DNA of 64,000 nucleotides, taken from assembly GCA_024506175.1 (NCBI GenBank), contig JAMBEQ010000021.1:8538-72537 (forward strand), in the 5' to 3' direction. Source of the stretch: Methylocystis sp. (lineage in GTDB: Bacteria; Pseudomonadota; Alphaproteobacteria; Rhizobiales; Beijerinckiaceae). Shown here in pieces: positions 7,013 through 58,060 of the stretch (position 1 is its first letter; each line of letters opens with the position of its first letter). The position numbers and the translations under genes were made by a program. The notes below the pieces were generated by a model. That model saw only the letters and a program-made list of their open reading frames with translations. It was not told the origin of the DNA and searched no databases.

Positions 7013-7119
7013 GATGCGTCGATCCTATTACGGGGCAAGGCGAAGAATGAGGCGCAGAGCTTACGCGTGGCTTGCCGCTGATCGCCCCGGCGCGCCGGTT
7101 TGCGCGCTTTATTGCAAAA

Positions 7120-7154
7120 GTGATATTGATCAAAAATACAACCTAAGGTAGTAT
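7120..7154 (+). promoter_or_regulatory. Sigma70-like promoter with overlapping FNR/FixK-like box
   Basis: TTGATC-N17-TAGTAT (7126-7154); GTGAT-N4-ATCAA (7120-7133), one mismatch to TTGAT-N4-ATCAA. Confidence 0.4.
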
Positions 7155-7271
7155 TATAAGCGTTGCGATTTTAGCGAGGCGTCGTCCGTCAGCGAAAGCA
7201 TGCGGGCTCGGACGTCCTCCTCTTTGGACCGGGGGGCTGGTCCCTTTTTTATGACGCGATGGGAGGCTGGG

Positions 7272-7631
7272 GTGGTTGAAAGAATATTATCCGATGAGCT
7301 TTGGGCCACAGTTGCAGGCATTCTGCCAGAAAAGGAAGGCGATCCGGGTTGCCATGGGCGCGACAACAGGCTTTTTCTCGAGGCTGTTTTCTGGATTGCG
7401 CGTACGGGGTCTCCCTGGCGCGACCTGCCCTTCGAGTTCGGAAAATGGTACACAACTTATACGCGATATCATCGTTGGGAAAAGAAGGGCGTATGGCCGC
7501 GCGTTTTCGCGGCGCTGCAACAAGAGGGCGCCGTCGACCTGCTTCATTACGCGGATAGGCTTCGAGTAACGGACTGGGCGCCGCCGCCGGCTTCTGTAGA
7601 GGCTTTGCCGGGCGAACTGGCTGCAGCCTGA
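7272..7631 (+). mobile_element. IS5-family transposase N-terminal (DUF4096-like) domain only
   Basis: LSDELW...DNRLFLEAVFWIARTGSPWRDLP.EFGKW.T.Y.RYHRW...GVW motif; RBS GGGAGG before GTG; no DDE domain follows. Confidence 0.8.
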
Positions 7632-7752
7632 CGCGTAGCGCGCATTCCGCTCGCCTTGACTTGTGCGAGCGAGAAGAAAACGCGCCAACTCAAAAACTGG
7701 CGCGCATACTTATCGCAAAAGACGGTCAACTCTTGCGGAATGCGCTCTCGGG

Positions 7753-8574
7753 CTATTGGGATTGGGACTGCGGCGGCGTCGGGGCGATGCGGATCTTGAC
7801 CTCCATCGTCCCCCCGGCGCCGCCGACGTGTGCGCTTCGAATAGGGGCGGCGCTCAAATGATCCAGCGCAACGGCGAGCCGCACATGCCGTTCACCGGGC
7901 GAGACGCCATGGGCCGGATCGAACCCGACCCAGCCCAGACCTTCCACATAAGCCTCGGCCCAAGAGTGTCTGGCGCTGTCCTCCATGCCGCGACACAGGT
8001 GGTAGCCGCTCACATAGCGGGCCGGCGCGCCGACCGCGCGCGCGGCGGCGATAAATAGATGCGCAAAATCCCTCGGACCGCCTTTGCCGCGCTCTAAGGC
8101 CTCGGTCGCCGTCATGGCTGCGTCGCTTGTCTCCGCATCGCACATGAGTTCACCGTGGATCGCTGAGAGCAGCGAATGGAGAGCGCCGAGCGTCTTCTTG
8201 TCGCCTGCCGTTGCCGAGCGAGCAAAATCGACGATGGCGGGGCTGGGCGCGGTAAGCGGGGTCTGCCGCAAATAGAGCGCCGGTGGAAAACGCTCCAATG
8301 CGCCAGAGGCGACGCCCGCCGTGTCGAAGGTCGTAACCTCCCCCTCGATCATGATTGTGATCGACTCGAAAGGCCCGTCTGCCGTGAATCGATGAACGAT
8401 ATTGCCAAAGGCGTCTTCCGACGAAAGCAGGCGGCAGTCGCGGTCGATGTCGATGCGCCAATTTTTCACATGATGGCCGTCGTAATTTCGGGGGGTTAAA
8501 CGCAGATGCTGGACCGCCGATTTCACCGGCTCGTGATAGCGATACTGCATTTGTTGGCGGATCCGAATGCGCAT
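7753..8574 (-). CDS. Transglutaminase-like protein (BTLCP N-terminus), catalytic Cys absent
   Basis: YRY..PV...Q.LRLTP N-terminus, ARYVSGY, HSWAE, WVGFDP; expected GVCQD reads GGPRD. Confidence 0.9.
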   Translation of the reverse strand: MRIRIRQQMQYRYHEPVKSAVQHLRLTPRNYDGHHVKNWRIDIDRDCRLLSSEDAFGNIVHRFTADGPFESITIMIEGEVTTFDTAGVASGALERFPPALYLRQTPLTAPSPAIVDFARSATAGDKKTLGALHSLLSAIHGELMCDAETSDAAMTATEALERGKGGPRDFAHLFIAAARAVGAPARYVSGYHLCRGMEDSARHSWAEAYVEGLGWVGFDPAHGVSPGERHVRLAVALDHLSAAPIRSAHVGGAGGTMEVKIRIAPTPPQSQSQ

Positions 8575-11183: not shown

Positions 11184-11269
11184 GCGCTGGTCCACCTGTC
11201 GACGCTCCTCTAATTGCCGCGCGCCGGGCTCCTCCGAGCGTTTAGGCTGCTCTCCGCAGGGCGGTAAGT

Positions 11270-11285
11270 AACAAGAAGCATGCCA
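11270..11285 (-). promoter_or_regulatory. Near-consensus sigma54 (-24/-12) promoter for the ATP-grasp operon
   Basis: TGGCATGCTTCTTGTT versus TGGCAC-N5-TTGCW; the -12 GC reads GT. Confidence 0.35.
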
Positions 11286-11453
11286 GGCTGGTTGTCTTGC
11301 CCCTGTCATAGAAGCCTCACAATGGCCAACTATCCGAGGCGTTGAGAAATTGCTTCGGCTCAGCTTGCGCTCATTAATGCTTCGTGAACGCGCTCTCAGA
11401 AAGTTTCGGGGGTCGTCCGCTATGCGCTCGGTTCTGTCCCGGCCGGGGGCGCC

Positions 11454-11478
11454 CCATGCAGCTGTCTCAGCTGCATGG
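11454..11478. promoter_or_regulatory. Perfect 11-bp inverted repeat between divergent operons
   Basis: CCATGCAGCTG-tct-CAGCTGCATGG. Confidence 0.4.
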
Positions 11479-11598
11479 ACGAAGCTTCGGCAAAGACAAC
11501 GGCGCGACTTTCGACTATCAAGTTTGTGGTCAATACTTGCGTGGGGCGGGGTCAATGTCTTTGATTGAGGCCGCCCGGGCGATCTGAACGAGGGGCGT

Positions 11599-13755
11599 AT
11601 GCGGGGCTATGTCGGGTTGGGAGAAGGTAGCCCGCGCAGGGCGGCGCCCCCTGGCGTTGCGTGCCGTCGCCTTTGCCTGTTCCTGACTGTTTTCGCCCCC
11701 TCCGCCGCAAGCGCGGGCGACGCGCCGCCGCCTGTCTTCAACTGGGCGGGGCTTTACCTCGGCGCGAGTTTTGGAGGGGTTTTTCCCTTGCATGGCGGGG
11801 AACGCCTCCAGGCTGGAAGCGGCTTCGGCTCGCCGGTCTTCGACCTCTATCCGGCAAGCAATACTCGGACAGGGGTGACTGTCGGCGCGCAAGCTGGCTA
11901 CAATTGGCAACGCGGGCCCTGGGTCTGGGGCTTCGAGACCGAATTGAGCCTGCTCGATGGTCGCCGTACGCCGAGCGGGGTCTTCCCGACCTCGCCCGCC
12001 TATCCCGGCGTACCTTTCTTCACCATGTCGGCAAACGCCAACGCCGCTTATTTCGCCAGCATTCGCGCGCGATTCGGCTTCGCCTACGACCGCGCGTTGA
12101 TTTATCTGACAGCCGGCGTCGCAGCGGGCGGCGCGCGTGGGCCGGCGAAGATTTCCTTCGGACCCGGCATCGACTTCACGGCGGACTGGTCGCAGTCGTC
12201 GCGCGCAAAATATGCCGTTGGCGGCGGTTTCGAATACGCCTTCGCCGCGGACTGGTCGGCGCGCGCAGAATATCTCTTTCTCAGCCAGTCGCTGAACACG
12301 CAAGTTTTCGACGATGGCAACCAAAACCAATATTTCTCACGCATTCGCAATGAGAACCACATCTTGCGCTTCGGCCTGAATTACCACTTCGGAGAGAGCA
12401 ATCTCATTCCCGGCCCTGTGGAGTATGGCGGCCACAGAAACGCCGGCAACGGGGGCGGAGACAAGGAAGAGGTCAAAGCGGAGCGCTACAGCGTCCACGG
12501 CCAATCGACCACCGTCGTTCAGGCTCTTCCGAAATTCTACGCCAAATACGACGGCCCCAAGAGCTTTCCATCCAAAGGTGTAGGCGATGTTCTGACGCAG
12601 AATGATCTTTTCATGGGTTTGCGCCTTTGGGAGGGCGGCTCCGTTTTTCTCAACCCGGAGATAAACGAGGGCTATGGACCGGGAAATTCGACAGGCTCCG
12701 CGGCCTATCCCGACGGGCTCGCGCAAAAGATCGGCCGCGCTGCGCCCTATATGCGATTCCAGCGCTATTTTTTGCGGCAGATCATCGGCCTGGGCTCGAA
12801 CGGCGACCAAACACACGATCCCGATGAAGGCTCCCGGAGCGAGGTGCTGGAATCGATCCAGAACCAGATTGCCGGCAAGGTCGACAAGGATCGCATCATC
12901 GTCACGTTGGGGAAGTTTTCCGTCGGAGACGTCTTCGACGACAATGTTTATGCGCATGATCCCACGACCGGCTTCATGAGCTTCGCCTTCAATTACATGG
13001 GCGCCTTCGATTACGTTTCGGACGCCTGGGGCTTCACCAACGGCCTATCCGTCGAATGGAAGCAAAACTGGTGGACGCTGCGCGCGGGGACGTTCCAACA
13101 GTCGAAGGTCCCCAACGGCAACGACATCGAGCCTGTATTGTTGAAGCAATATATGGGCGTGCTCGAATTCGAGGCGCGTTACGAGCTTCTCGGACAACCG
13201 GGAGCGATCAAATTTCTCGCCTATGGCGACAATGGCCGATTTGCCAAATTCCGCGACGTGTTCAACCTCGCTTTGGCGACCGGCAATCTTCCGCCCGACG
13301 TTACGGCGCTTCAGCAACGTCATTTCAAACCGGGCGGTGGAATCAATATCAAGCAGCAGATCATGCCGAACATCGGTTTCTTCATGCGCGCGAGCATGGC
13401 CGATGGACGGTATCAGACGGTCGATTACATCGACAACGATCGCCAGATCTCGGCCGGCTTTGTCTTCGACGGCGCGCTGTGGGACCGTCAGGATGACGAG
13501 GTCGGCATTGCGGGGGCCATGGCGGGACTTCACGGAGACCACGTCCGCTATTTCGAGCTCGGCGGCATCGGCACCTATATCGGCGATGGCGCGATGACGT
13601 ATGGCGGCGAAAAGAATATGGAGGCGTATTATAAGGTCGGTCTCAGCAAGAATTTTGACGTGACCTTTGATTACCAGTTCTTCGTCAATCCAGCGCACAA
13701 CATGGCGCGCGGCCCCGTCAACGTTTTCGGCCTGCGCGCGCGCGCGGCGTTCTGA
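11599..13755 (+). CDS. Outer-membrane beta-barrel + OprB carbohydrate-porin fusion (MnoP-like architecture)
   Basis: FNWAGLYLG...GYNWQ...GLNYHF Omp25-like domain followed by OprB-like domain; C-terminal Phe. Confidence 0.85.
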   Translation: MRGYVGLGEGSPRRAAPPGVACRRLCLFLTVFAPSAASAGDAPPPVFNWAGLYLGASFGGVFPLHGGERLQAGSGFGSPVFDLYPASNTRTGVTVGAQAGYNWQRGPWVWGFETELSLLDGRRTPSGVFPTSPAYPGVPFFTMSANANAAYFASIRARFGFAYDRALIYLTAGVAAGGARGPAKISFGPGIDFTADWSQSSRAKYAVGGGFEYAFAADWSARAEYLFLSQSLNTQVFDDGNQNQYFSRIRNENHILRFGLNYHFGESNLIPGPVEYGGHRNAGNGGGDKEEVKAERYSVHGQSTTVVQALPKFYAKYDGPKSFPSKGVGDVLTQNDLFMGLRLWEGGSVFLNPEINEGYGPGNSTGSAAYPDGLAQKIGRAAPYMRFQRYFLRQIIGLGSNGDQTHDPDEGSRSEVLESIQNQIAGKVDKDRIIVTLGKFSVGDVFDDNVYAHDPTTGFMSFAFNYMGAFDYVSDAWGFTNGLSVEWKQNWWTLRAGTFQQSKVPNGNDIEPVLLKQYMGVLEFEARYELLGQPGAIKFLAYGDNGRFAKFRDVFNLALATGNLPPDVTALQQRHFKPGGGINIKQQIMPNIGFFMRASMADGRYQTVDYIDNDRQISAGFVFDGALWDRQDDEVGIAGAMAGLHGDHVRYFELGGIGTYIGDGAMTYGGEKNMEAYYKVGLSKNFDVTFDYQFFVNPAHNMARGPVNVFGLRARAAF

Positions 13756-26487: not shown

Positions 26488-26931
26488 TCAAGCCGCGTCG
26501 GGCTCGCAGCTCAGAATCCAGGTCTGTCCGCAAAAAGCGACATAGATCCGCTCCTGTCCGAGCGCTTGCCCCAACTCGATCGCCAGTTCGTTGAGCATGG
26601 CCTCGATCTCTTCGTCGGGCAGCTCACCGAGGTAGGCGTGCACGGCTTCACCGGTGAAAATCGCGACCGGCTCACGATCCGAACCGACGGTTCCGTCGCC
26701 TTTGGGCCAGGCGTAGGTGACCTCCGCTCGGGCGAACATGCCAGAGAGCGCGGGTTTCCCCGCCTCGACCCGGCGGCGCATCCATCCCCGCGCGGTGCGC
26801 ACGGCTTCAGAGACGTCATACACGCGGCCGTCGGAATCCCAGCCTTCCCGCAGGCCCACGGTGATGCGGAAATCCCGCCGAGGCCCAAGCGAGCCGGAGA
26901 CAATGCGGTAAGAGCGATTGGGTTCGGTCAT
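26488..26931 (-). CDS. Hypothetical protein
   Basis: 147-aa ORF with typical codon bias, globular alpha/beta pattern; family not recognised. Confidence 0.75.
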   Translation of the reverse strand: MTEPNRSYRIVSGSLGPRRDFRITVGLREGWDSDGRVYDVSEAVRTARGWMRRRVEAGKPALSGMFARAEVTYAWPKGDGTVGSDREPVAIFTGEAVHAYLGELPDEEIEAMLNELAIELGQALGQERIYVAFCGQTWILSCEPDAA

Positions 26932-27056
26932 TGGGAGAAATTACGGCGCGCGACGCGCGAGGGAAAATAGTTATTCCGAAAACTGGACCGGCCGGGCTCG
27001 CCAAACTAGAGCGCATTCTTGTCGCAGAAGTCCTGTCAACTCTCGCGGAATGCGCT

Positions 27057-27464
27057 TTAGCTTCCTTGCGGTCCCTTTAGTTCGACAACATTACGCTCCG
27101 GGTCTGTGACATAGATCGAGGGCCCGTAGCCTTCGGCGCCGTAACGGGAGGTGGTCGGTCCGGCGTCGACGCCATTGGCTTCAAGATGACGCCGGATGCC
27201 GGGTTCGTCAAAGGGATCGACGCGGAAACAGAAGTGATCAAGGTTCCGCCCTTCCGTCCCCGGCGCGGTGCCTCCAACACTCCCGAGTTTCCCGTCCACA
27301 GTCACAAGATCGAGAAGTGACCGGCCTGCTCTGAGCTGTATGAGGCCAATCTCTTCTTGTCGCCTTTCAATGGTACATCCCAGAACATCGCAATAGAACT
27401 TCAGCATAGCGTCGAGGTTCACGACGCGAAGCACCAGATGGTCAATTTCCCGGATCCGGATCAT
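27057..27464 (-). CDS. VOC/glyoxalase family protein
   Basis: IDHLVLRV, FYCDVLG, NLDHFC, SIYVTDPERNVVELK. Confidence 0.92.
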   Translation of the reverse strand: MIRIREIDHLVLRVVNLDAMLKFYCDVLGCTIERRQEEIGLIQLRAGRSLLDLVTVDGKLGSVGGTAPGTEGRNLDHFCFRVDPFDEPGIRRHLEANGVDAGPTTSRYGAEGYGPSIYVTDPERNVVELKGPQGS

Positions 27465-27678
27465 CGCAACTGCTCCTCGGGGGCCCAAATGGCCCTCTTC
27501 GGCGGCTTTTATAGCGAGGCGCAATGACGTCTCTAAGTTGATTTTCCCATAGAGCCTCGTCGCTGCGCCGTTGGCTATCTCAACGCTGATATCGGCGTTA
27601 CGGCAAGCCCCCGGGCAGCGCTGAAATTGTGTGACCGCCAGCAGCCAGATATGGCTGATCGCCTTCGCCGGCCCGCGA

Positions 27679-28989
27679 TCACTCCACCTCTGCGTCCGCA
27701 GTGGCCGCTTCGGCATCGACGGCCGCCGTCTCCTGCTTGGGCGTGCGCTTGAAGGTCGACTTGCGACCGCGCAGGGTCTGCAAGATTTTCGCCCCATTCG
27801 CGAAAGCGAGATAAACGAAAAGAGGCGGAAGCGAGCCGACGGTCTTGGCGAAATCGAGAACCGCACCACGCTTTAGGTGCAGGTAGGGCGGCAGCGTTAT
27901 GCCGAGCGCCACCATCAGCGTCATGACGAGAATCAGCCCCAGCACGCCGCAATAAGGCGCCAGCGAGCCATGCAGGATTGCGCCGAGCGCGAAGGCGATG
28001 AGGCCGATCGCGGCCGCCGGGAAGAAGATTTGATGCGCGATGAGCGAGATCGCCAGCACGCGCTTTGGGAGCGGCCAGGGCGCCTCCCAAATGGGAAGGA
28101 TCGTCTTCTGCGCCACCTGTACGAAGCCGTTGGACCAGCGCCTCTGCTGCCGGCGGAAATCGCGTATGCCGTCCGGCACCTGGCCGGGGATCGGCGGCTC
28201 GGAAACAAAGAGCCCATGCCAGCCCTTGAGTTCAGCTCGCACGGTCAGGTCCAGATCCTCGCAGAGCGAGTAATCCGACCAGCCGCCGGCGTCCGCCACC
28301 GTCGCGCGGCGCCAAATGCCGCCGGTGCCGTTGAATTGGAAAAGCCAACCCGCGAGGGCGCGCGAGCGCTGCTCGACCATGTAATGGCCGTCCTGGATCA
28401 AGCCTTGGGCGCGAGTCAGCCAGTTGGTCTCGTAGTTCTGGAACTCGCAGCGCGACTGCACGAAGCCGGCGCGATCGTCGATCAGGAAGAGCGGCACAGT
28501 GCGGCGGAGCCAATTGGCCGGCGGGCGGAAATCGGCATCCAGCATGGCGATGAAGGGCTCATTTGTCAGCGTCAGCCCATGCGCGCAGGCGCCGGCCTTG
28601 AAGCCCGAACGGTCTTTGCGGCGCACATGGTCGATGATCGCGCCCTGGGCGCGTAGCTCGTCCGCGACGCGCCCGGCCCGTTCACTTGTCTCGTCGGTCG
28701 AGTCGTCGAGGAGCTGAATGCGAAGCTTGTCCTTCGGCCAGTCGAGCTGGGCGACGCAGCGCAGCGATTGTTCGGTGACGAGCGGCTCGTTGAAGACTGG
28801 GATCTGCAGCAGGACATGCGGCAGGTCGGCGTCGGGCGTCGCCGGCGCTTCAGGGTCGCGAGCGCCGCGCAGCCAGTCAAAGAGAAAGCGCCCGATGACG
28901 ACGAGGTAGCCGACCCCGATGGCGACGAGGATCGCGGCGCAAAGATAGGCGACCGCGTCGACGAGAAATAGGAAGAGTCCAAGCAGCAA
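27679..28989 (-). CDS. GT2 membrane glycosyltransferase (CESA/CslA-like)
   Basis: QIPVFNE, QLLDDSTD, GFKAG, DADF, EDLDL, QQRRWSNG (D,D,D,QxxRW set). Confidence 0.92.
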   Translation of the reverse strand: MLLGLFLFLVDAVAYLCAAILVAIGVGYLVVIGRFLFDWLRGARDPEAPATPDADLPHVLLQIPVFNEPLVTEQSLRCVAQLDWPKDKLRIQLLDDSTDETSERAGRVADELRAQGAIIDHVRRKDRSGFKAGACAHGLTLTNEPFIAMLDADFRPPANWLRRTVPLFLIDDRAGFVQSRCEFQNYETNWLTRAQGLIQDGHYMVEQRSRALAGWLFQFNGTGGIWRRATVADAGGWSDYSLCEDLDLTVRAELKGWHGLFVSEPPIPGQVPDGIRDFRRQQRRWSNGFVQVAQKTILPIWEAPWPLPKRVLAISLIAHQIFFPAAAIGLIAFALGAILHGSLAPYCGVLGLILVMTLMVALGITLPPYLHLKRGAVLDFAKTVGSLPPLFVYLAFANGAKILQTLRGRKSTFKRTPKQETAAVDAEAATADAEVE

Positions 28990-28993
28990 AAGG

Positions 28994-30154
28994 CTATCCT
29001 TCTTCAGGCGCGCGGGGCGCTGGCTGCGCCATTGCGCGCGCGTGGACCTTGTCCTTCGCCCAGACTACTCTGTCTGTCATCCAGGCGTTCACCCAGACCG
29101 CGAGCATGATTGCCTCGCGGAAAACGAAAACCGCAGGCGCCGCGTAGGATAACTGCCACCCTTTGGCCAAGGAAAGCAATGTTTCCAACGCGAACCAGAG
29201 CGCGAAGGTTGCGGCGAAGCCGCAAAACGGCGTCGCGCCAAGGAGCGGCGCGGCGAGCGATCCTGCTACAAGCGACGGAAAAGCTTGGCAGATCGGCTCC
29301 AGCAGGAAGGAGACGAGCTCATCGTGGCGACGGATGACGCTCCATCTCAATTGGCGTTGATAAACGTCGTGGAAATCTCGCGCGCCCAGCTCCTGGCGGA
29401 CGGGACGATGAGAAAAAACCGGACGTTGACCGATTCGCCGCATCGCCTTGGCGAGCGCGTTGTCTTCACCCACCGTATGAGAAATGGCGTCGAAGCCGCC
29501 GGCGCGCAGGAAGTCCGAGTGGCGGAACAGCATGATCTTGCCTACGCCATGCCCCTGCCCGAGGCACGAGGCGAGGAACAGCATGCGCGCGTGTGGCCCA
29601 TTGATGATCGCCGCCTCGACATGGGCGGCGAAATTTTCGAGCCCGGCGCAATAGGGAATCGCGCAGACGAGCCCGACGTCGTCCGTCAGCTGCCGGATAT
29701 GCTCGGCGAGCGCGTCGGGCTCCAGAAGGACATTGGCGTCCTTCATGAGGATCACGTCGTTCTCCGCCTGCATAAAAGGCGCGTAAAGATTGTCGACCTT
29801 CGGGCTCACCGCGAAACGCGCCGTCGACAACAATATCCGCGACCGCGTCTCTGGGTGGCGCGCGAAGATCTCGCCCATTTTTCGCAAGGCGGGCGATCTC
29901 GGCTCCGCCGCTGAGACGGTCACGTCGAAACAGGGATAGTTCTGAGTGAAAACGGTTTCCTGAGTTCGCCCGAAGCCGTCATCGAGAAGCTTCACCGGCA
30001 AAACGATGGAGACCGGCGGCTGGTCGCGCCGCCGCGCGCGGCGCTTCGCGATGCGCGGCTGCACAATCGTCGCAATGACTGAGGTGGCCAGGAGCGCCGT
30101 GGCGATGGCCCAATAGGCGGCCGCAAGCCAACTTATGAGCAAGTCGGCGCTCAC
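28994..30154 (-). CDS. GT21 ceramide glucosyltransferase-like protein (HpnI/UGCG family)
   Basis: SPKVDNL, MKDANV, GKIMLFR, GEDNAL, RQLRWS..RR; GTG overlaps the SDR stop. Confidence 0.88.
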   Translation of the reverse strand: MSADLLISWLAAAYWAIATALLATSVIATIVQPRIAKRRARRRDQPPVSIVLPVKLLDDGFGRTQETVFTQNYPCFDVTVSAAEPRSPALRKMGEIFARHPETRSRILLSTARFAVSPKVDNLYAPFMQAENDVILMKDANVLLEPDALAEHIRQLTDDVGLVCAIPYCAGLENFAAHVEAAIINGPHARMLFLASCLGQGHGVGKIMLFRHSDFLRAGGFDAISHTVGEDNALAKAMRRIGQRPVFSHRPVRQELGARDFHDVYQRQLRWSVIRRHDELVSFLLEPICQAFPSLVAGSLAAPLLGATPFCGFAATFALWFALETLLSLAKGWQLSYAAPAVFVFREAIMLAVWVNAWMTDRVVWAKDKVHARAMAQPAPRAPEEG

Positions 30155-30999
30155 ATGCCCTCGCCGCGCTCTGGCGATTCCGGCACGACGACATGGAAGC
30201 GCCGCATGATGCCGTCGACCAGAGAGGGCGGCAAGAAGGAAAAGAAGCGCAAGGCGTAATACATGTATTGCGGGAAGGCGATGACCGGCCGCCGGCGCTC
30301 CAGGCCGCGTTTGATGATCTCCGCCGCCTTGGCATCCGAAATGGCGCTCGGCTGCCAGGATTTGGTGCGCGCAGACATGGGCGTCTTCACGAAGCCCGGC
30401 ACGATGAGGCTCACCTTCACGCCATGGGGGGCGAGCTGGCCACGCAGACAATCGGCCCACATGTGAACGCTGGCCTTGGCCGCGCAATAGGCGGGCGAAT
30501 AGGGCAGACTGCGCACGCCCGCCATGGAGCCGACGATGGCGATCTGACCCTGCTTGCGACTCGTCATGGCGGGGATGGCGGGCTCGACCGTGTTGAAGAC
30601 GCCCGCGACATTGATCGCCAAAGTGGCGCGCACGGCTTCCGGCGTCTCCAGAATTTGGCCCGGCGACAGGCCCGTGGCGACGCCGGCGTTGGCCACGATG
30701 ATATCGATGGGCCGCGCGGCATGTGCGGCCTCGACGACGCGCGCCATGGCCTCGCGATCGCGCACGTCGGCAACGCGGGTTTCAACCTCGGCGGCGCCGG
30801 CGGCGCGGCAGGCTTCGGCGGTCGCATCGAGGCGCGCTTTATCGCGGCCGAGCAGATAGAGGCTCGCGCCGTCCCTGGCGTAGGCGATGGCGAGCGCCCG
30901 GCCGATGCCGGAGGAAGCGCCGGTGATGAGGAGGCGCTTTCCGAGCGCGAGGTCGGACGCGGCAGGCGCCCGGGTCGAGGCAACGGCCGTGTCGGTCAT
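30151..30999 (-). CDS. Short-chain dehydrogenase/reductase
   Basis: ITGASSGIG, IIVANAG, YCAAK catalytic motif, PGFVKT. Confidence 0.93.
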   Translation of the reverse strand: MTDTAVASTRAPAASDLALGKRLLITGASSGIGRALAIAYARDGASLYLLGRDKARLDATAEACRAAGAAEVETRVADVRDREAMARVVEAAHAARPIDIIVANAGVATGLSPGQILETPEAVRATLAINVAGVFNTVEPAIPAMTSRKQGQIAIVGSMAGVRSLPYSPAYCAAKASVHMWADCLRGQLAPHGVKVSLIVPGFVKTPMSARTKSWQPSAISDAKAAEIIKRGLERRRPVIAFPQYMYYALRFFSFLPPSLVDGIMRRFHVVVPESPERGEGM

Positions 31000-31436
31000 G
31001 GTCTACCCGCCCCGGCTTTGGCCTCAGTCCCCGAGACAGAAGGGAGAAACCGCAACGTCGCCTCGCCGATGATTCCCGGCGCGCGAGCGGCGCCATGGGC
31101 GAACAGGCGGATGAAAATCTCGTCAGGAGACGCGCGCAACACCCGGCCAGAGAGCCTCACCGTCTCGCCGCGCAGGATCGGCTGGATGAATTTCGCAGAA
31201 AAGCCGACAAGGCTGAGATCCTTCCGCCATTTGGCGAGCATGGGCTCGAAGGCGGCGAGCAGCTTCATCCCATGCACCGGCGGCGCAGCGAGGCCGATCT
31301 TGGCGGCGAGCGCGTCGTCGAGATGGAGCGGATTGTCATCGCCGGAAACCTCGGCGTAGCGCGCAAGGGCCTCGCAGTCGAAGGGGCCGATGACCACTTC
31401 CGGCAACTTGTCGCCGACGCTGATGGCGTGGCTCAT
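30996..31436 (-). CDS. MaoC-like (R)-hydratase/dehydratase, catalytic subunit (HadB-like)
   Basis: YAEVSGDDNPLHLD hydratase-2 motif, PVHGM. Confidence 0.9.
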   Translation of the reverse strand: MSHAISVGDKLPEVVIGPFDCEALARYAEVSGDDNPLHLDDALAAKIGLAAPPVHGMKLLAAFEPMLAKWRKDLSLVGFSAKFIQPILRGETVRLSGRVLRASPDEIFIRLFAHGAARAPGIIGEATLRFLPSVSGTEAKAGAGRP

Positions 31437-31855
31437 GGCGCTGCTCCGAGTCCCGCGCGGGGAACGAGACGCAGGGTCGTTTCGATCCGCGCGACCGTGG
31501 CGCCGTCGAGGGCGGAGATGGTCGCGTCAATCACGATGCGCGGCGGCGTCGCTTCGCAGCGCAGCAAGACGCGAACATCATAGCTCTCGCCCGAGAGAAG
31601 CGGCGTCTCATAAGCGAAGCTTTGGGCCTCATGCACGGGCACGGCGTCGAGCGTCGCGCAGATTTCGCGCACTGGCGCAGAGAGCGCCGGCTCCATCAGC
31701 CAGAGGGCCGGATAAGACAGCGGCACGCTCGATCCATCCCCGCCCGTCTCGCGCGCATAGGCCGCCGCGCGCGCCGGGTCGACTCGCAGGCGGAAGGGGC
31801 CGAGATTTCTCGGCGCATCGAGCGGCAGATCTGGCTTCTCGGCGTCAATCTGCAT
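31433..31855 (-). CDS. Hot-dog fold MaoC-N-like partner subunit (HadA-like)
   Basis: AAYARETG, YPA, VHEAQSFAYETPL..GESY pattern; translationally coupled to both neighbours. Confidence 0.65.
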   Translation of the reverse strand: MQIDAEKPDLPLDAPRNLGPFRLRVDPARAAAYARETGGDGSSVPLSYPALWLMEPALSAPVREICATLDAVPVHEAQSFAYETPLLSGESYDVRVLLRCEATPPRIVIDATISALDGATVARIETTLRLVPRAGLGAAP

Positions 31856-33080
31856 GGCGAACGACCAGAACGGCGTTTATGCCGCCGAAAGCGAAAGAGT
31901 TGGACATGGCCGCGTCGATCTTATGGGGCCGCGCGGTATTGGGCACGGCGTCGATCGGGCAGCGCGGATCGAATTCCAGGAAATTGATCGTGGGCGGAAC
32001 TACTTGCTCGCGCAAGGCCTCGATGGTGATCGCGAGCTCCAGCCCGCCGCTGGCGCCGAGCGCATGGCCATGAATAGGCTTGGTCGAGGAAACGGGAACC
32101 TCGCGCCCATAATCGCCGAAGACGCGTAGGATCGCCTCCGACTCGGTAATGTCATTGGCGTGCGTGGCCGTGCCATGGGCGTTGATATAACGGATGTCCC
32201 GCGGGGCGAGGCCCGCATCCTCCAGCGCCTGCGAGATGCAGCTGGCGGCGCCATCCAGATCCGGCCGGACGGGGTCCTTGGCGTCGCTCGTCGTGCCGTA
32301 GCCCGCGAGCTCGCAAAGCGGCTCCTGGCCGCGCGCGCGCGCCGACTCGGCCGTCTCCAAAATAAAGACCGCCGCCCCTTCGCCGAGCGACATGCCGTTG
32401 CGGCCGATGGAGAAGGGCCGACAGAAATTGGGCGTCATCACCCGCAGCCCTTCCCAGGCGCGGATGGTGGCGTTGATGACGCAGGCCTCGGCGCCGCCGA
32501 CGATCGCCTTGTCCACCATGCCGGAGCGGATCATTTGCATCCCGATCCCGACCGACTGGCTCGCCGAGGAGCAGGCGCTGCCCACGGCGAAGGTGGGGCC
32601 GAGCGCCGAGAAGCGGGCGCCGAGCGTGGTCGGCATGGCGCTCGGGATGAGCTTCGGGACGCTCAGCGTCTCGGGCCGCGTGTGCTCCACGTAGTATTTG
32701 TAGATGCCATCCTCGATCGTGGTCATGCCGCCGATGCCGGTGCCCATGATCACGGCCGTGCGCGGCCCGGCGATGTCCTTGCGGCCGAAGCCCGCCTGCG
32801 CCATCGCCTCGTCAGCTGCTACGACGGCGAACTGCGTGAAAGGGTCGCAGAAGGGGAGAACGTTCTCCTCTATATGGGCGGCCGGGTCGAAATCCGGCAC
32901 TTGCGCGGCGATCCGGATGCGCCCGTCATAGGGGCGCTCGGTTTTGAGCTCGCGAATCTGGGCCACGCCGTCGCGCGCGGCCTCCCACAGCTTGCGCGCG
33001 CCGACGCCCGAGCCGCAAACCACGCCCATGCCGGAGACGACGACTCGGCGTCCTCCGTCCCCGCTTCGCGAAGCCGCCAT
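31845..33080 (-). CDS. Beta-ketoacyl-ACP synthase (FabF/NodE-like)
   Basis: SACSS (Cys), NAHGTAT (His), TKPIHGHALGASG (His), SNSFAFGG; WEGLRVM..NFCRPFS segment resembles NodE. Confidence 0.93.
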   Translation of the reverse strand: MAASRSGDGGRRVVVSGMGVVCGSGVGARKLWEAARDGVAQIRELKTERPYDGRIRIAAQVPDFDPAAHIEENVLPFCDPFTQFAVVAADEAMAQAGFGRKDIAGPRTAVIMGTGIGGMTTIEDGIYKYYVEHTRPETLSVPKLIPSAMPTTLGARFSALGPTFAVGSACSSASQSVGIGMQMIRSGMVDKAIVGGAEACVINATIRAWEGLRVMTPNFCRPFSIGRNGMSLGEGAAVFILETAESARARGQEPLCELAGYGTTSDAKDPVRPDLDGAASCISQALEDAGLAPRDIRYINAHGTATHANDITESEAILRVFGDYGREVPVSSTKPIHGHALGASGGLELAITIEALREQVVPPTINFLEFDPRCPIDAVPNTARPHKIDAAMSNSFAFGGINAVLVVRHAD

Positions 33081-33356
33081 TTACTGGGTCTCGCGCTCTT
33101 TCTGAATATGCTCGGCGATCGCGCCGATGAGGCTCTCGACTGTCTTGGCCTCCTGGAGCGAGCCGTCCATCGGGATATAGACGTTGAACTTCTCCTCGAG
33201 CGCCGTGAGGATCATGACGATGTCTACCGACTTGAGGTCGAGACTTTCGATGGTCGCGTCGGGCGTCACCTTACTGCGGTCGACCATGCCCTCCGAAGCG
33301 ATCACTTCTATGATTTCCTCTTTGAGCTTGGCAATGTCTTGAGGATTGTCAGCCAC
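33081..33356 (-). CDS. Acyl carrier protein (stand-alone, cluster-specific)
   Basis: Acidic 91 aa; DLKSVDIV phosphopantetheine site; ALEEKF. Confidence 0.88.
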   Translation of the reverse strand: MADNPQDIAKLKEEIIEVIASEGMVDRSKVTPDATIESLDLKSVDIVMILTALEEKFNVYIPMDGSLQEAKTVESLIGAIAEHIQKERETQ

Positions 33357-33598
33357 GAAATCCCTCCGTTAAGGGTCTATCGATCCGCGAGAACGCTCGC
33401 GTGGCGCACCACCGCGCGAAAGCGAAATGAAGGCCGTGCGCCCACCCCTTCCACGCCTTTTCCGGGGCGGCGGAAACTTGGTTACGGGTTTTGGCGACGA
33501 AAATAAAGCCCGGCCCAACCTTCGGGGTTCAGGTCCCGCTTCCCCAGGGCGGCGCTTCGTGGCAAAAGGCCCGCAAAACACGAGGGGTCCAGATCGAA

Positions 33599-35464
33599 AT
33601 GAGCGCCAACGAGACAGCCATCGCCGGGGTTTTTCCACAGCCGAACGAGGAGCAGTGGCGCAAGCTCGTCGATAAGGCGCTGAAAGGCGGCTCCTTCGAC
33701 AAGCTCGTTTCCAAGACTTATGACGGCGTTGCCATCGCCCCCCTTTACACGCGCGCCGCCAATCAGGCCCCGCGCGCCCTGCGCAAGACGCCCGGGCGCT
33801 GGTCGATCCTCGGCCGCGTTGATCTCGCCGACGCGGACGCCGCCAACAAATTCGCCCTCGAAGATCTCGAAGGCGGCGCAGATGGCCTGCATATCGTCTT
33901 TGCCGGGGCGCAGGGCGCTTATGGCGCGGGTCTGACGAGCGACAGCGACGAGACGATCGCACATCTTCTGGCCAGCGTTCGGCTCGATTACGGCGTCCCC
34001 GTCCTCGTCGAAGCCTCGCCGCGGGCCCCCAATGCGCCCGCCGCCATCATGCGTTATGTCGACAGCCGCCACATCGAGCCGTCGATCACCCGCATTTCCT
34101 TCGGCCTCGATCCCCTGGGGCTCCAGGCGCTGCACGGATTCGCGCCGGCCCACTGGAGCGAGGGCGCTAAGACTTTCGCCGCCGCCGTCAAGGCGATCGC
34201 CAAGGCCGGCTTCTCCAATGGCGTAGTTGTCGCCGACGCGCGCCTCGTCCACGCGGCGGGCGGCTCGGAGGCGCAGGAACTCGCTTTCGTGCTCGCCGCC
34301 GCCGTGGCCTATCTGCGCGTGCTGACCGACAACGGCCTCGACATCGAGACCGCCCGCTCGCTGATCGCGCTGCGTTTCGCCGCCGACGCCGACGAGTTCA
34401 TGGGCGTCGCCAAATTCCGCGCCGCGCGCCGGCTCTGGGCTCGGGTTGAGGAAGCCTGCGGCCTCGCCCCGAAGCCGGCCCTGATCTTCGCCGAAACCGC
34501 CTGGCGCATGATGTCGCGCCGCGACCCCTGGAACAACATATTGCGCGGCACGCTCGCGACCTTCTCCGCGGCGATCGGCGGGGCCGATACGGTCACCGTT
34601 CTGCCCTTCACCCAGCCTTTCGGCGCGGCGGATGGGTTCGCCCGACGCCTCGCCCGCGACACGCAACTCGTGCTGCAGGACGAGTCCCATATCGACGTCG
34701 TCAACGATCCGACGAGCGGAGCCGGCGGGTTCGAGGCGCTGACGCAGGATCTATGCGAGCGCGCCTGGGCGGCCTTCCAGGAGATCGAGGCGGAAGGCGG
34801 CCTGCCGGCGGCGCTCGAAAAGGGAAGCTTCCAGGGCCGCGTCGCCGCGACCGCGGGCGAGCGCGCGAAAAGGATTGCGCGTGCGAAGGAAAAGGTCATC
34901 GGCGGGAATGAATTTCCGGATATCCACGAAAAGACCCTCGACGTCGCCGCGCCTTATGACGCCTCGCGCCTTTCCGCTGACGCGCCCGCCGGGGCGCTGA
35001 CGTCGGCCTCGCTCGCCCCGCGACGTCTCTCCGAGCCCTTCGAACGTCTGCGCGACGAGTCCGACGCCTATGCCGAAAAAACAGGCAAGCGCCCGAAAGT
35101 CTTCCTGGCCAATCTGGACTCCGTCGCGGCCTTCACGGCGCGCGCCAATTACGCCAAGAATTTCTTCGAAGCGGGCGGCGTGGAAGCCGTTTTCGGGCCT
35201 GAGGCCGAGTCGACGGCCGAAATCGTGGCGGCTTTCGGCGCGTCTGGCGCCAAACTCGCTTGCCTGTGCTCGTCAGACAAGATCTACGCCGAGGCGGCGG
35301 AGCCGGCCGCAACCGCCCTGAGAGCGGCGGGTGCCAAGCTTTATTCCGCCGGCCGGCCCGGCGAGATGGAGCAGAAGCTTCGCAATGTAGGCGTCACAGA
35401 GTTCATTTATGTCGGCTGCGACATGCACGACGTTCTGCAGCGGGCGCTCGAGGAGGCCAAATGA
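33599..35464 (+). CDS. Methylmalonyl-CoA mutase small (beta) subunit
   Basis: W.KLVDKALKG..F..L...TYDG, DPW.NILRGTLA.F.A..GGAD, LARDTQLVLQDES, DP..GAG; C-terminal B12-like domain without DxHxxG. Confidence 0.92.
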   Translation: MSANETAIAGVFPQPNEEQWRKLVDKALKGGSFDKLVSKTYDGVAIAPLYTRAANQAPRALRKTPGRWSILGRVDLADADAANKFALEDLEGGADGLHIVFAGAQGAYGAGLTSDSDETIAHLLASVRLDYGVPVLVEASPRAPNAPAAIMRYVDSRHIEPSITRISFGLDPLGLQALHGFAPAHWSEGAKTFAAAVKAIAKAGFSNGVVVADARLVHAAGGSEAQELAFVLAAAVAYLRVLTDNGLDIETARSLIALRFAADADEFMGVAKFRAARRLWARVEEACGLAPKPALIFAETAWRMMSRRDPWNNILRGTLATFSAAIGGADTVTVLPFTQPFGAADGFARRLARDTQLVLQDESHIDVVNDPTSGAGGFEALTQDLCERAWAAFQEIEAEGGLPAALEKGSFQGRVAATAGERAKRIARAKEKVIGGNEFPDIHEKTLDVAAPYDASRLSADAPAGALTSASLAPRRLSEPFERLRDESDAYAEKTGKRPKVFLANLDSVAAFTARANYAKNFFEAGGVEAVFGPEAESTAEIVAAFGASGAKLACLCSSDKIYAEAAEPAATALRAAGAKLYSAGRPGEMEQKLRNVGVTEFIYVGCDMHDVLQRALEEAK

Positions 35465-52178: not shown

Positions 52179-52323
52179 CTCGGTGCGCAAGGCGTGGCTC
52201 CGCTGGCATAGGCTCGCGATATGACGTGCGCTGGCGCGCTTGTCGAGCGCATGTCACAAAGCTAAGACGAATTGCAAGGCTGACGGAGCTTTCCGTCGAA
52301 TCGCTTGTCTTGAAAGAGGCTTC

Positions 52324-53466
52324 ATGGCTGCCGGCGCCGCCCAAGCTCTCCCGGACGTCTCACCCCTCGAAGGGGGCGCACGGCTGGCGCTCGCCGGCGA
52401 CTGGACCCTTGCGGCCTCGCGGCGGCTCGAGCAGAAGGCTCAGGAGATCGTGGACTTCGGCCGGCGCTCGACCTTTGTGACGATCGACCTCTCCGGCGTC
52501 TCGCGGCTCGACACCGCCGGCGCCTGGCTGATCAACAGATCCCGGCGGCTGCTCGCGGGGGCGAATGTCGCGGTCGTGATCGAACACGCCCGCCCCGAGC
52601 ACGATATCTTGCTCGAGGAGGCCGCCTATCGCGAGTTCCCGCCAAGAGCGCGCGGGCGCATTTCGATCGTCGCGGAGCTGCTCTCGGATATCGGCCGCGC
52701 GGTGGTCTCAAGCGCGAGGGAATTTTACCGCGGCGTCGCGTTTTTGGGCGAATTTGTCAGCGTGATGGCCTTTGTTGCGACGCATCCCAAGCATTTTCGC
52801 GGGACGTCGCTCGTCGCCCATATGGAGTTGGTCGGCTTGCGAAGCGCGCCGATCATCATCCTCATCAATCTCCTCGTTGGCTCGATCGTCGCCCAGCAGG
52901 GCATTTTCCAGCTCATGAGATTCGGCGCGACGAGCTATACAGTGAGCCTGATCGGCATCCTGGTGCTGCGCGAGCTCGGCGTTCTGCTCACCGCCATCAT
53001 GATCGCTGGTCGGTCGGGTTCCGCCATTACCGCCGAAATTGGCTCCATGAAGATGCGGGAGGAGGTCGACGCCTTGCGCGTCATGGGCCTGTCGGTCATA
53101 GAAGTGCTCGTTGCGCCGCGGGTGCTCGCGCTCGTCGCGTCGCTTCCGATCCTGACCTTCATCGCCGATATTGCGGCGCTTTTTGGCGGCATGCTGGTCT
53201 CGTGGGGCTATGGCGGCATCAGTCCGGTCGCCTTCACCTCGCTGCTCAGGGACGCCATCGGCCTCAATACATTCATGGTCGGAATCATCAAGGCGCCATT
53301 CATGGCGCTGGTCATCGGATTGATCGCAACAATGGATGGTCTGGCGACGCTGGGCTCGGCTGAATCGCTCGGTCGTCAGGTCACCTCTTCGGTCGTCAAG
53401 TCGATTTTCATGGTAATCGTGCTCGACGGGCTGTTCGCCGTCTTCTTTGCATCGATTCATTATTGA
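52324..53466 (+). CDS. mlaE: MlaE-type ABC permease with STAS-like N-terminus
   Basis: RELGVLLTAIMIAGRSGSAITAEIGSMKMREEVDAL. Confidence 0.95.
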   Translation: MAAGAAQALPDVSPLEGGARLALAGDWTLAASRRLEQKAQEIVDFGRRSTFVTIDLSGVSRLDTAGAWLINRSRRLLAGANVAVVIEHARPEHDILLEEAAYREFPPRARGRISIVAELLSDIGRAVVSSAREFYRGVAFLGEFVSVMAFVATHPKHFRGTSLVAHMELVGLRSAPIIILINLLVGSIVAQQGIFQLMRFGATSYTVSLIGILVLRELGVLLTAIMIAGRSGSAITAEIGSMKMREEVDALRVMGLSVIEVLVAPRVLALVASLPILTFIADIAALFGGMLVSWGYGGISPVAFTSLLRDAIGLNTFMVGIIKAPFMALVIGLIATMDGLATLGSAESLGRQVTSSVVKSIFMVIVLDGLFAVFFASIHY

Positions 53467-53477
53467 GCGTGGCCGCG

Positions 53478-54290
53478 ATGACCTTTTCCGAAAGAGACGG
53501 CTCGGGCGCGATTGGTCCGCATGGCGACGTGACCATCAGCGTTCGCGATCTCGTGGTCGGTTTCGGCGACAAGCTCGTGATGAAAGGCCTCGATCTCGAC
53601 GTCTATCGCGGAGAAGTTCTCGGCTTCGTTGGAGGGTCGGGGCAGGGGAAATCCGTCCTCACCCGCGCGATTTTAGGCCTCGTGCCGACACGCGGCGGCT
53701 CCATCCGCATCTTCGGCAAGAACCGCGACAGCCTGCCGCCGGCGGAGCGGCGGGCGCTCGAGCAGCGCTGGGGCGTTCTGTTCCAAAACGGCGCGCTGTT
53801 TTCCGGTCTGACCGTCAAGCAGAATATTCAGATGCCGATGCGTGAGACGCGGGACCTTTCGCCGCGGCTCATGGACGAGCTCGCCATGCTCAAAATCGAG
53901 CTCGTTGGATTGAAGCCGGACGCTGCGGACAAATTTCCGTCCGAATTATCCGGCGGCATGGTCAAGCGCGCAGCGCTGGCGCGTGCGCTGGCGCTCGACC
54001 CGGAGCTGGTTTTTCTCGACGAGCCGACCTCGGGGCTCGATCCGATTGGGGCGGCGGAATTCGACGAGCTGATCGCGACGCTGCAGAAAACGCTCGGACT
54101 GACGGTCTTCATGGTCACCCATGACCTCGACAGCCTTTACTCGATATGTGACCGCGTCGCAGCGCTCGCCGAGGGAAAAGTGATTGCGGCGGGCCCGCTC
54201 GAGACCTTGCTGCAATCGGATCACCCTTGGCTCAAGGCCTATTTCCACGGGGTTCGTGGCGGGCGGCTCGCCGCGACAATCCCCGATTGA
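53478..54290 (+). CDS. mlaF: MlaF-type ABC ATPase
   Basis: GGSGQGKS, FQNGALFSGLTV, ELSGGM.KRAALARALALDP, LDEPTSGLDP. Confidence 0.95.
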   Translation: MTFSERDGSGAIGPHGDVTISVRDLVVGFGDKLVMKGLDLDVYRGEVLGFVGGSGQGKSVLTRAILGLVPTRGGSIRIFGKNRDSLPPAERRALEQRWGVLFQNGALFSGLTVKQNIQMPMRETRDLSPRLMDELAMLKIELVGLKPDAADKFPSELSGGMVKRAALARALALDPELVFLDEPTSGLDPIGAAEFDELIATLQKTLGLTVFMVTHDLDSLYSICDRVAALAEGKVIAAGPLETLLQSDHPWLKAYFHGVRGGRLAATIPD

Positions 54291-54301
54291 GAGGACGAAG
54301 C

Positions 54302-56262: not shown

Positions 56263-57324
<1,062 letters not shown>

Positions 57325-58002: not shown

Positions 58003-58060
58003 CGATAGACTCACGCCGTTGAGCCACTATTCCTTGCATACGCCGCAAAGGACCGACGCC

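Follow-up and report, generated by a model that had tools for sequence, protein, structure and literature searches.

The 64,000-nucleotide stretch of Methylocystis sp. analysed here (contig JAMBEQ010000021.1, positions 8,538 to 72,537; hereafter the window) carries on its minus strand, between 27679 and 33356, seven intact open reading frames (ORFs). They encode an acyl carrier protein (ACP), a β-ketoacyl-ACP synthase (KS), two proteins likened to the mycobacterial hot-dog dehydratase subunits HadA and HadB, a short-chain dehydrogenase/reductase (SDR) and two membrane glycosyltransferases of families GT21 and GT2. An earlier note, made from the sequence of the window, had described seven co-oriented and tightly packed genes of these families; all seven ORFs lie where it placed them, and the profile matches and the gene junctions agree with the description. 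The ACP and KS genes abut and the KS and HadA-like genes overlap by 11 nt. Overlaps of 4 nt join the HadA-like to the HadB-like gene, the HadB-like gene to the SDR gene and the SDR to the GT21 gene, and a gap of 4 nt separates GT21 from GT2. For the GT21 gene we took the start at 30154, overlapping the SDR stop, which had been called independently on a metagenomic contig of identical sequence; a longer mechanical ORF extending to 30487 was rejected as the gene. The GC content of the block (0.64-0.67) is the same as that of its surroundings.

Families were assigned with Pfam and NCBIfam models, using equivalog cut-offs where these are given. Each operon protein was aligned with 12 relatives from different species, and the catalytic residues are invariant in these 13 sequences. 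The features are listed below.

Features of the seven-gene block and of other parts of the window discussed in the text; the last column gives the range of identity to the window protein across the family.
Feature	Length	Position	Strand	Basis or remark	Identity
Conserved element GGGCTTTATTTTC-N16-TAAC(C/G)A	33 nt	33479-33511	-	123-155 nt upstream of the ACP start	
ACP	91 aa	33081-33356	-	PF00550 (PP-binding), 30 bits; ACP models under equivalog cut-offs	78-97%
FabF/NodE-type β-ketoacyl-ACP synthase	411 aa	31845-33080	-	Pfam ketoacyl-synt N and C domains	71-96%
HadA/HadC-like hot-dog protein	140 aa	31433-31855	-	Predicted fold only	38-83%
HadB-like MaoC (R)-specific hydratase/dehydratase	146 aa	30996-31436	-	PF01575 (MaoC_dehydratas), 52 bits	60-88%
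Classical SDR	282 aa	30151-30999	-	adh_short 164 bits, KR 41 bits; presumed β-ketoacyl reductase	56-90%
GT21-family membrane glycosyltransferase	386 aa	28994-30154	-	PF13506 (Glyco_transf_21), 149 bits vs cut-off 21.7	59-89%
Cellulose-synthase-like GT2	436 aa	27679-28989	-	Glyco_trans_2_3 (PF13632), 84 bits; Glycos_transf_2	62-96%
VOC/glyoxalase-family gene		27057-27500	-	Directly downstream of GT2	
Mla-like lipid-transport ABC system		52240-55198	+	STAS-MlaE permease fusion (STAS N-terminal), ATPase, MlaD/Mce protein	
Pyridine-nucleotide-disulphide oxidoreductase		56275-57324			
Sfp-type phosphopantetheinyl transferase (PPTase)		57325-58002	+	ACPS and AASDHPPT_N; 24 kb from the operon	
Choloylglycine-hydrolase-family amidase		58019-59101			
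Short GT4-like ORF		59811-60302	+	Matches only the C-terminal part of GT4 glycosyltransferases	

One genome per species (185,579 species) was scanned with two conserved exact GT21 peptides. This gave 74 loci, all of which, with three apparent exceptions, come from Methylocystis, Methylosinus or metagenome-assembled genomes (MAGs) labelled Methylocystaceae or 'Alphaproteobacteria'. When the seven proteins were compared with these loci by tblastn, the whole block was found in the same order and on the same strand in 66 of the 74, a recurrence in independently assembled loci that goes far beyond chance. Six of the eight incomplete loci end at contig edges, one (L053, a long-read MAG) has an SDR gene fragmented by frameshifts, and one (L073) is disrupted. 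A divergent gene for a methylmalonyl-CoA mutase small subunit lies upstream in 62 loci and the downstream neighbour varies by species, so that the conserved unit consists of exactly the seven genes.

The three apparent exceptions were looked at individually. L073 (CAWGRQ010000012.1, 9937-12435) bears a Terriglobia MAG label and holds frameshifted GT21 and GT2 genes with unrelated ORFs upstream, and it is the one locus in which the glycosyltransferase genes occur without the ACP-KS-dehydratase-SDR genes. It could have been taken for a version of the system consisting of glycosyltransferases only; this was rejected, since the last 16 codons of the SDR gene directly precede GT21 and the locus therefore derives, as a disrupted copy, from the same arrangement. 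L073 also carries a Methylocystaceae flanking gene, and the contig is probably misbinned. The second exception, labelled 'Methylocapsa aurea' (L059, NZ_CBDIOS010000001.1), might have indicated spread beyond the Methylocystaceae. We rejected this as well, because the contig is colinear with that of Methylosinus sporium (L063) over 18.6 kb at 88% nucleotide identity and carries the tag 'mcapsa msin_1'; it is read here as Methylosinus. The third (L042, 'Beijerinckiaceae bacterium') has all seven genes in the same order, with an ACP 92% and a KS 90% identical to those of the window, and would by our own reading be another relative of Methylocystis and Methylosinus, both of which GTDB places in the Beijerinckiaceae.

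Protein searches gave the same picture. Relatives of the GT21 at 80-90% identity come from Methylocystis (M. parvus, M. iwaonis, strain JAN1 and MAGs). A profile of the HadA-like protein, the fast-evolving member of the set, retrieved only 236 proteins at E<=1e-3 among 5.8 billion, and all those with a name belong to Methylocystis or Methylosinus. Both this protein and the GT21 subfamily were found only in the two genera and in Methylocystaceae MAGs. These homologue searches rely on shared 5-residue words and may have overlooked more divergent versions elsewhere. The entries named as Methylosinus are M. sporium, LW4, C49, PW1 and R-45379. For M. trichosporium the genome scan returned no locus, and none of its proteins is among the best 120 relatives of the Methylosinus GT2; judging from these sequences, the operon seems to be absent from M. 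trichosporium OB3b.

Some copies show irregularities. The KS gene is split over two frames in L016, L040, L051 and L053. L016 is Methylocystis parvus strain M6-2022 (7054-8231 and 11197-12477), where GT2 is also poorly matched, and GT2 is split in L023. These defects, like the fragmented SDR gene of L053, may reflect either sequencing errors in long-read assemblies or natural pseudogenes. In one MAG lineage (L056) a fatty-acid-hydroxylase/sterol-desaturase-like membrane protein with histidine boxes adjoins GT2 downstream on the opposite strand. The VOC/glyoxalase-family gene that follows GT2 in the window occupies that position in none of the 74 related loci. This downstream flank, unlike that of other Methylocystis, suggests a local rearrangement.

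The block is transcribed. For the copy in M. rosea SV97 (L035), contigs assembled from three pure-culture RNA-seq studies and one metatranscriptome cover the whole block, and some of them bridge the KS/hot-dog, SDR/GT21 and GT21/GT2 junctions, which is consistent with a single transcript. An alignment of 68 upstream regions showed a 33-nt element common to both genera. A single exact copy of its core was present in each of 55 loci, some of them without an adjacent divergent mcm gene, and the window has no second exact copy. Because the element is present where the mutase gene is not adjacent, it belongs to the ACP operon, and we regard it as a probable promoter or operator. It has no σ70 consensus, and a σ70 promoter scan of 26900-33700 found none. 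Two other modes of control were considered and rejected. An RNA element in the long 5' region found no support, as an Rfam search at gathering thresholds returned one tRNA only in the window. Control by phosphate starvation was set aside because there is no PlcP gene and no excess of Pho boxes over shuffled background, Pho-box-like sites being present in 7 of the 68 upstream regions compared with 12 of the 68 shuffled controls.

The ACP, KS and SDR of the chain-extending half keep their catalytic residues. In the ACP the phosphopantetheine-attachment residue, Ser38, lies within the motif IESLDL and is invariant. The KS retains its active-site triad, Cys170-His302-His338, together with Lys334. 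It scores 377 bits against the fabF model TIGR03150, under the equivalog cut-off of 494; its best match in the PDB is FabF (283 bits), with Iga11 at 212 bits. The earlier note had called it a NodE-like KS with an intact Cys-His-His triad. The triad is indeed intact, but the NodE label is a loose one: the KS is 42% identical over its full length to the genuine NodE of Rhizobium leguminosarum and is about as near to the FabF structures. The SDR contains the TGxxxGxG motif as TGASSGIG (residues 26-33), the NAG motif, the catalytic Ser158, Tyr171 and Lys175, and a hydrophobic C-terminal segment. Its best NCBIfam model is PRK07024 (177 bits vs a cut-off of 266), the FabG models score lower, and no PDB chain matched at E<=1e-25. 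The intact residues and the PP-binding, adh_short and KR domains sustain the claim of a dedicated ACP and an SDR.

The two hot-dog proteins differ in how far they can be recognized. The HadB-like protein contains the hydratase-2 motif YAEVSGDDNPLH with Asp33 and His38, both invariant. Its best PDB matches are mycobacterial HadB proteins (E 5e-10 to 2e-9), followed by PhaJ, and it matches the HadB model NF010246 with 42 bits (E 7e-11), under the equivalog cut-off of 203, so that HadB orthology cannot be assigned by this model. The 140-residue HadA-like protein, in contrast, had no Pfam, NCBIfam or PDB sequence match. An AlphaFold2 model built with 20 family sequences (mean pLDDT, the predicted local distance difference test score, 84) shows a hot-dog fold, for which the best Foldseek matches in the PDB are HadC and HadA of Mycobacterium tuberculosis (E ~7e-6, TM ~0.6, 15-18% identity). 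PhaJ and several hot-dog thioesterases come next, with E values only slightly worse. The protein lacks the hydratase-2 motif and has an invariant His75-Glu76-x-Gln78. At the level of fold it is probably the non-catalytic partner of the HadB-like protein; that it is a thioesterase is less likely. A further indication comes from an outside locus, L081 (GCA_943370795.1, CALRSH020000009.1, 8674-18888), which encodes a 271-residue double hot-dog protein. The HadB-like protein aligns with its C-terminal half (38% over 81 residues), so that the fused protein matches the gene order of the operon, the non-catalytic part first and the catalytic part second. Because of the fold matches, the HadB sequence matches and this order, we accept the HadAB-like MaoC pair described in the earlier note, with the reservation that only its second member is recognizable by sequence, the first being a predicted hot-dog fold with no sequence-family match. 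By analogy, the use of a dehydratase of the HadAB type, and not FabZ, suggests long or bulky substrates.

The remaining two genes encode glycosyltransferases, classed as polytopic, inverting GT-A enzymes. GT21 has one N-terminal transmembrane segment in a hydropathy scan and the motifs D139, E230-D231 and Q266xxRW, all invariant. It matches ceramide glucosyltransferase in the PDB with E 8e-33, and relatives carry that label at the Joint Genome Institute (JGI). Its best NCBIfam model, matched over the full length, is HpnI (TIGR03472), at 154 bits against an equivalog cut-off of 310, which does not make it HpnI. The ceramide-glucosyltransferase assignment of the earlier note thus holds for the family; the nearest annotated bacterial relatives are only about 30% identical, and at least one of them, in Fuscovulum blasticum, lies directly behind a PlcP-like gene, a diacylglycerol-remodelling context. 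To our knowledge, every GT21 enzyme characterised so far transfers sugar to a membrane lipid (ceramide, diacylglycerol or bacteriohopanetetrol), and both the structural match and the Fuscovulum context are consistent with a membrane-lipid acceptor here. The GT2 has an N-terminal transmembrane region, about three C-terminal transmembrane helices (hydropathy scan) and the invariant motifs D95, D151xD153, E244-D245 and Q281xxRW (Q281QRRW). By sequence it matches BcsA in the PDB with E 3e-16, and an AlphaFold2 model of low confidence (pLDDT 66) finds BcsA, PcManGT and hyaluronan synthase as its best Foldseek matches, as expected of the cellulose-synthase-like enzyme that had been proposed. It reached the cut-off of none of the named synthase equivalogs (CelA 100 of 699 bits, in a partial match; PgaC 62 of 422; NodC 22 of 550).

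Taken together, the operon would supply every discrete activity of type II elongation except enoyl reduction, on a private ACP, and next to these it encodes two lipid-type glycosyltransferases. The explanation that we favour, although tentatively, is that this translationally coupled, Methylocystaceae-specific operon makes a lineage-specific membrane glycolipid that contains the operon-made chain. On the basis of the set of enzymes encoded, which is intact, strictly linked and transcribed, we infer a chain chemistry, an acceptor and a route from acyl chain to sugar as follows. The ACP would be phosphopantetheinylated by a PPTase encoded elsewhere and malonate would be loaded by the housekeeping FabD. 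On the private ACP, the KS would lengthen an acyl chain of housekeeping origin by at least one C2 unit, the SDR would reduce the 3-keto group, and the predicted HadAB-like heterodimer would dehydrate the 3-hydroxyacyl-ACP. As enoyl reduction is not encoded in the operon, a 3-hydroxy or 2-enoyl group probably persists on the chain, which would be a conjugated polyenoyl one if the cycle is iterated as in NodFE. The bridge to the sugars could be an activity outside the operon that releases the chain or moves it into a membrane lipid, with lower likelihood a thioesterase activity of the hot-dog protein, or else direct glycosylation of the free hydroxy or carboxylic acid. GT21, at the cytoplasmic face, would probably then transfer a first hexose from a UDP-sugar to a hydroxyl group of the lipid, and GT2 would add one or a few further β-linked sugars. 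The two enzymes are placed in this order because characterised GT21 members glycosylate membrane lipids and characterised GT2 enzymes with a QxxRW motif extend β-glycans at the membrane.

Several points weigh against this explanation. Our literature searches found no lipidomic report for Methylocystis or Methylosinus that mentions such a lipid. The operon has no acyltransferase, clear thioesterase or reductase that would turn an acyl-ACP into a glycosyltransferase acceptor with a free hydroxyl, and what ties the half that resembles a fatty acid synthase (FAS) to the glycosyltransferase half is synteny only. The KS is no nearer to NodE than to FabF. The SDR resembles PRK07024-type SDRs more closely than FabG and possibly does not use ACP thioesters as substrates. 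The housekeeping FabI could reduce the enoyl intermediates, in which case the chain may be an ordinary, saturated one. The genome scan required two exact peptide motifs, so that more distant copies elsewhere could have been missed, and the RNA evidence consists of assembled contigs, which may include DNA and carry no information on conditions.

The contexts of more distant relatives were examined as well. When the KS was compared with 1.84 billion representative proteins (HMMER), the best representative outside the family was 56% identical, followed by a series at 44-49%; several of the nearest are called 'nodulation protein E' by JGI, an automatic KEGG orthology label (nodE) seen on near relatives only. 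Among the corresponding loci, an ACP-KS pair stands behind a left-handed-β-helix acyltransferase-like gene in L076 and L080 and is isolated in L077 and L078. In L081 the pair is followed by the fused double hot-dog MaoC protein, with a PlsC-type acyltransferase, inositol-1-phosphate synthase, two CDP-alcohol phosphatidyltransferases, an SDR and an ABC exporter as neighbours, and by its gene content L081 looks like an inositol-lipid cluster with the same kind of private elongation module. Neither a GT21 nor this GT2 was found in any of these contexts. By analogy, the occurrence of related NodE-like ACP-KS pairs in lipid or acyl-transfer contexts is consistent with a glycolipid containing an operon-made chain. 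The nearest annotated GT2 is 34% identical and belongs to an unrelated Pseudoalteromonas glycosyltransferase cluster. A plasmid collection held no similar cluster, its best matches (KS 48%, GT21 32%, GT2 34%) all being in unrelated contexts.

We compared the operon with characterised systems that share some of its parts. One of them is mycobacterial FAS-II (AcpM, KasA/B, MabA, HadAB/HadBC), which likewise has an ACP, an elongating KS, an SDR ketoreductase and a heterodimeric hot-dog dehydratase that combines one catalytic MaoC subunit with one substrate-binding subunit. The operon pair, likened to it from sequence and fold, has a catalytic subunit with the hydratase-2 motif and, in the predicted model, an adjacent hot-dog partner without it. 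The similarity is remote, however, and the operon differs in having no InhA-type reductase, in its alphaproteobacterial host and in its two glycosyltransferases. The acpXL cluster for the very-long-chain fatty acid of Rhizobiales lipid A also couples a dedicated ACP to a FabF-type KS, in the same bacterial order, but the operon has one KS instead of two, a MaoC-type instead of a FabZ-type dehydratase and two glycosyltransferases, and it has neither an alcohol dehydrogenase nor an LpxXL acyltransferase. Aryl-polyene systems and ishigamide Iga11/12 share with it a discrete ACP, KS, ketoreductase and dehydratase without an enoyl reductase, and these systems make polyenes. Aryl-polyene clusters also carry a GT2. 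Unlike aryl-polyene and other highly reducing type II polyketide synthase (PKS) systems, the operon has no chain-length factor, starter adenylation enzyme, thioesterase, acyltransferase, Lol-like or MMPL genes; its dehydratase is of the MaoC/HadAB type and there is no evidence of a pigment. In particular, the operon holds a single KS, with its Cys intact, and no second KS-like ORF, AMP-binding gene or acyltransferase gene.

The operon lies outside the Nod, acpXL, aryl-polyene, HpnI, PlcP-remodelling and Spt (serine palmitoyltransferase) pathways, because for each of them at least one defining feature was looked for and was not found. The earlier note had set its gene content apart from the acpXL and Spt routes, a distinction with which the Pfam and NCBIfam inventory agrees. 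Literature searches found no characterised pathway that matches the operon gene for gene, and neither did the contexts of its nearest relatives. Searches for Methylocystis glycolipids or sphingolipids gave nothing relevant beyond Scanlan et al. 2022. Since all of its parts belong to known families, the operon is not categorically new. By analogy, it appears to work like a hybrid of an elongation module of the NodFE or mycobacterial FAS-II type with a GT21/GT2 pair for lipid glycosylation.

The best surviving alternative, which we consider possible but somewhat unlikely, is that GT21 and GT2 act on an ordinary lipid, diacylglycerol or bacteriohopanetetrol, to give a mono- or diglycosyl lipid, and that the FAS-like genes tune the acyl pool or are separate in function. 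Precedents are the rhizobial Pgt (GT21), the cyanobacterial MgdA (GT2) and HpnI. Like the ceramide glucosyltransferases, Pgt and HpnI share with the operon enzyme the GT21 domain, the D/D/ED/(Q/R)xxRW motifs and an N-terminal membrane anchor, and HpnI provides its best NCBIfam model, although the score is half of the equivalog cut-off. MgdA is an integral-membrane enzyme in which helices flank the catalytic domain (PMC3916417), as in the operon GT2. The GT21 of Fuscovulum blasticum follows directly on a PlcP-like, diacylglycerol-generating phosphoesterase: on plasmid pRsa (L085, 5015-8241) four co-oriented genes encode this protein, annotated as 'UDP-2,3-diacylglucosamine diphosphatase', then the GT21 ('ceramide glucosyltransferase'), a VTT/DedA-domain protein and another glycosyltransferase, a likely phosphate-sparing glycolipid operon as judged from its gene content. 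The operon GT21, on the other hand, is not beside PlcP, hopanoid or sphingolipid genes. No PlcP or LpxH-like gene was found in the block or the scanned flanks, no hopanoid genes were seen there, and the operon has no Pho box. What is more, the glycosyltransferase genes are strictly linked to the ACP-KS-dehydratase-SDR genes in all but the one disrupted locus, and the SDR and GT21 genes overlap. Methylosinus trichosporium OB3b makes an Agt-independent monoglycosyldiacylglycerol for which the glycosyltransferase is unidentified (PMC9239053), which would count in favour of an ordinary acceptor; yet because the operon was not found in M. trichosporium, that lipid is probably made by something else.

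A variant of the favoured glycolipid is that a conjugated-polyenoyl or hydroxy long-chain acid, built on the private ACP, is glycosylated directly, by GT21 and then by GT2. The product, confined to Methylocystis and Methylosinus, would then be a glycosyl ester or a glycoside with no glycerol, sphingoid or hopanoid backbone. We regard such a glycolipid, which would form a new class, as unlikely.

It is also doubtful, and improbable in our view, that the product is a lipid-anchored or lipid-primed oligo- or polysaccharide, in which GT21 would make a glycolipid primer, GT2 would act as a small processive synthase-translocase and the special acyl chain as anchor, to give a surface or secreted glycan like the lipo-chitooligosaccharides. 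The GT2 shares with the processive synthases BcsA, NodC and hyaluronan synthase the D, DxD, ED and QxxRW motifs, the flanking transmembrane helices and, in the low-confidence model, a synthase-like fold, with BcsA, a minimal cellulose-synthase-like mannosyltransferase and hyaluronan synthases as its best matches. However, QxxRW by itself is no proof of processivity, the NodC, CelA and PgaC models score far under their cut-offs, and the conserved block contains no genes for export, cyclic di-GMP signalling or outer-membrane partners. The nod region of rhizobia is a parallel in gene content. There the NodF/NodE combination gives trans-2,4,6-polyunsaturated acyl chains, and both systems have a dedicated ACP and a single FabF-type KS, with neither a chain-length factor nor an enoyl reductase. 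The R. leguminosarum genes used for comparison are flanked by nodD and nodL; close to them are nodABC, which include the QxxRW GT2 (NodC), nodM and the gene of a MaoC protein (NodN). In contrast to the nod region, the operon encodes its own ketoreductase and dehydratase as well as a GT21, and its GT2 is not NodC. Neither NodA nor NodB families were detected by Pfam in the operon or its flanks. The ACP gave no alignment with NodF, and the MaoC protein showed no similarity to the protein in the NodN position; specific kinship to the Nod proteins, which holds loosely for the KS only, was therefore rejected for the ACP and the MaoC protein.

Two further proposals are very improbable. In the first, the FAS-like half would make 18:1ω8c from a C10 intermediate whose Δ2 double bond is retained while elongation goes on with no enoyl reduction. 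The arithmetic fits, as Δ2 in C10 becomes Δ10 in C18, that is ω8; the operon has no enoyl reductase and is confined to genera known for this acid, a signature of Methylocystis and Methylosinus in which M. trichosporium is rich. We rejected it as the principal explanation because it leaves the two strictly linked glycosyltransferases unexplained and because the operon is apparently absent from M. trichosporium; a trans-to-cis isomerisation step is also missing, and no relatives were found in the gammaproteobacterial methanotrophs that make 16:1ω8c. The second, a sphingolipid-type pathway in which the ACP delivers an acyl chain, the SDR is a 3-ketosphinganine-type reductase and GT21 a true ceramide glucosyltransferase, can draw on the match of GT21 to solved ceramide glucosyltransferase structures and the JGI labels of its relatives, on the ACP present in bacterial sphingolipid clusters and on the eukaryotic 3-ketodihydrosphingosine (KDS) reductases being classical SDRs, but was rejected because no pyridoxal-phosphate-dependent Spt, ceramide synthase or acyl-ACP synthetase was found in the operon or among the scanned genes of the window, a Claisen ketosynthase is no substitute for Spt, and a literature search found no paper linking Methylocystis with Spt.

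Among the predicted genes of the 64-kb window that were scanned with Pfam, none encodes an enoyl reductase, a malonyl transferase, Spt, a ceramide synthase, PlcP, a lipid acyltransferase or a thioester reductase, in line with the earlier statement that an enoyl reductase, Spt and an acyltransferase are missing. The Sfp-type PPTase of the window, which lies between the oxidoreductase and amidase genes, is a candidate activator of the private ACP and is unlinked to the operon in other genomes. The window also contains an Mla-like lipid-transport system and a short GT4-like ORF. In the 58-62 kb region around the latter the GC content falls to 0.56-0.58, and this ORF may represent part of a gene or DNA of foreign origin.

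Methylocystis and Methylosinus are major biological methane sinks in soils, wetlands and sediments, and in the field they are traced largely through their lipids. A conserved, expressed and lineage-restricted operon of this kind could encode an unrecognised membrane or surface glycolipid, with a bearing on biomarkers, membrane architecture, resting stages and surface properties. It would show the coupling of a chain-extension module of the NodE/HadAB type to GT21 and GT2 lipid glycosyltransferases, a combination for which our literature searches found no example among characterised pathways. The apparent absence of the operon from M. trichosporium OB3b provides a natural null host and comparison strain. 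If direct glycosylation were to prove true, type II methanotrophs would have in this product a lineage-specific biomarker, and a type II FAS/PKS would be joined to lipid glycosyltransferases in a new way that involves no acyltransferase.

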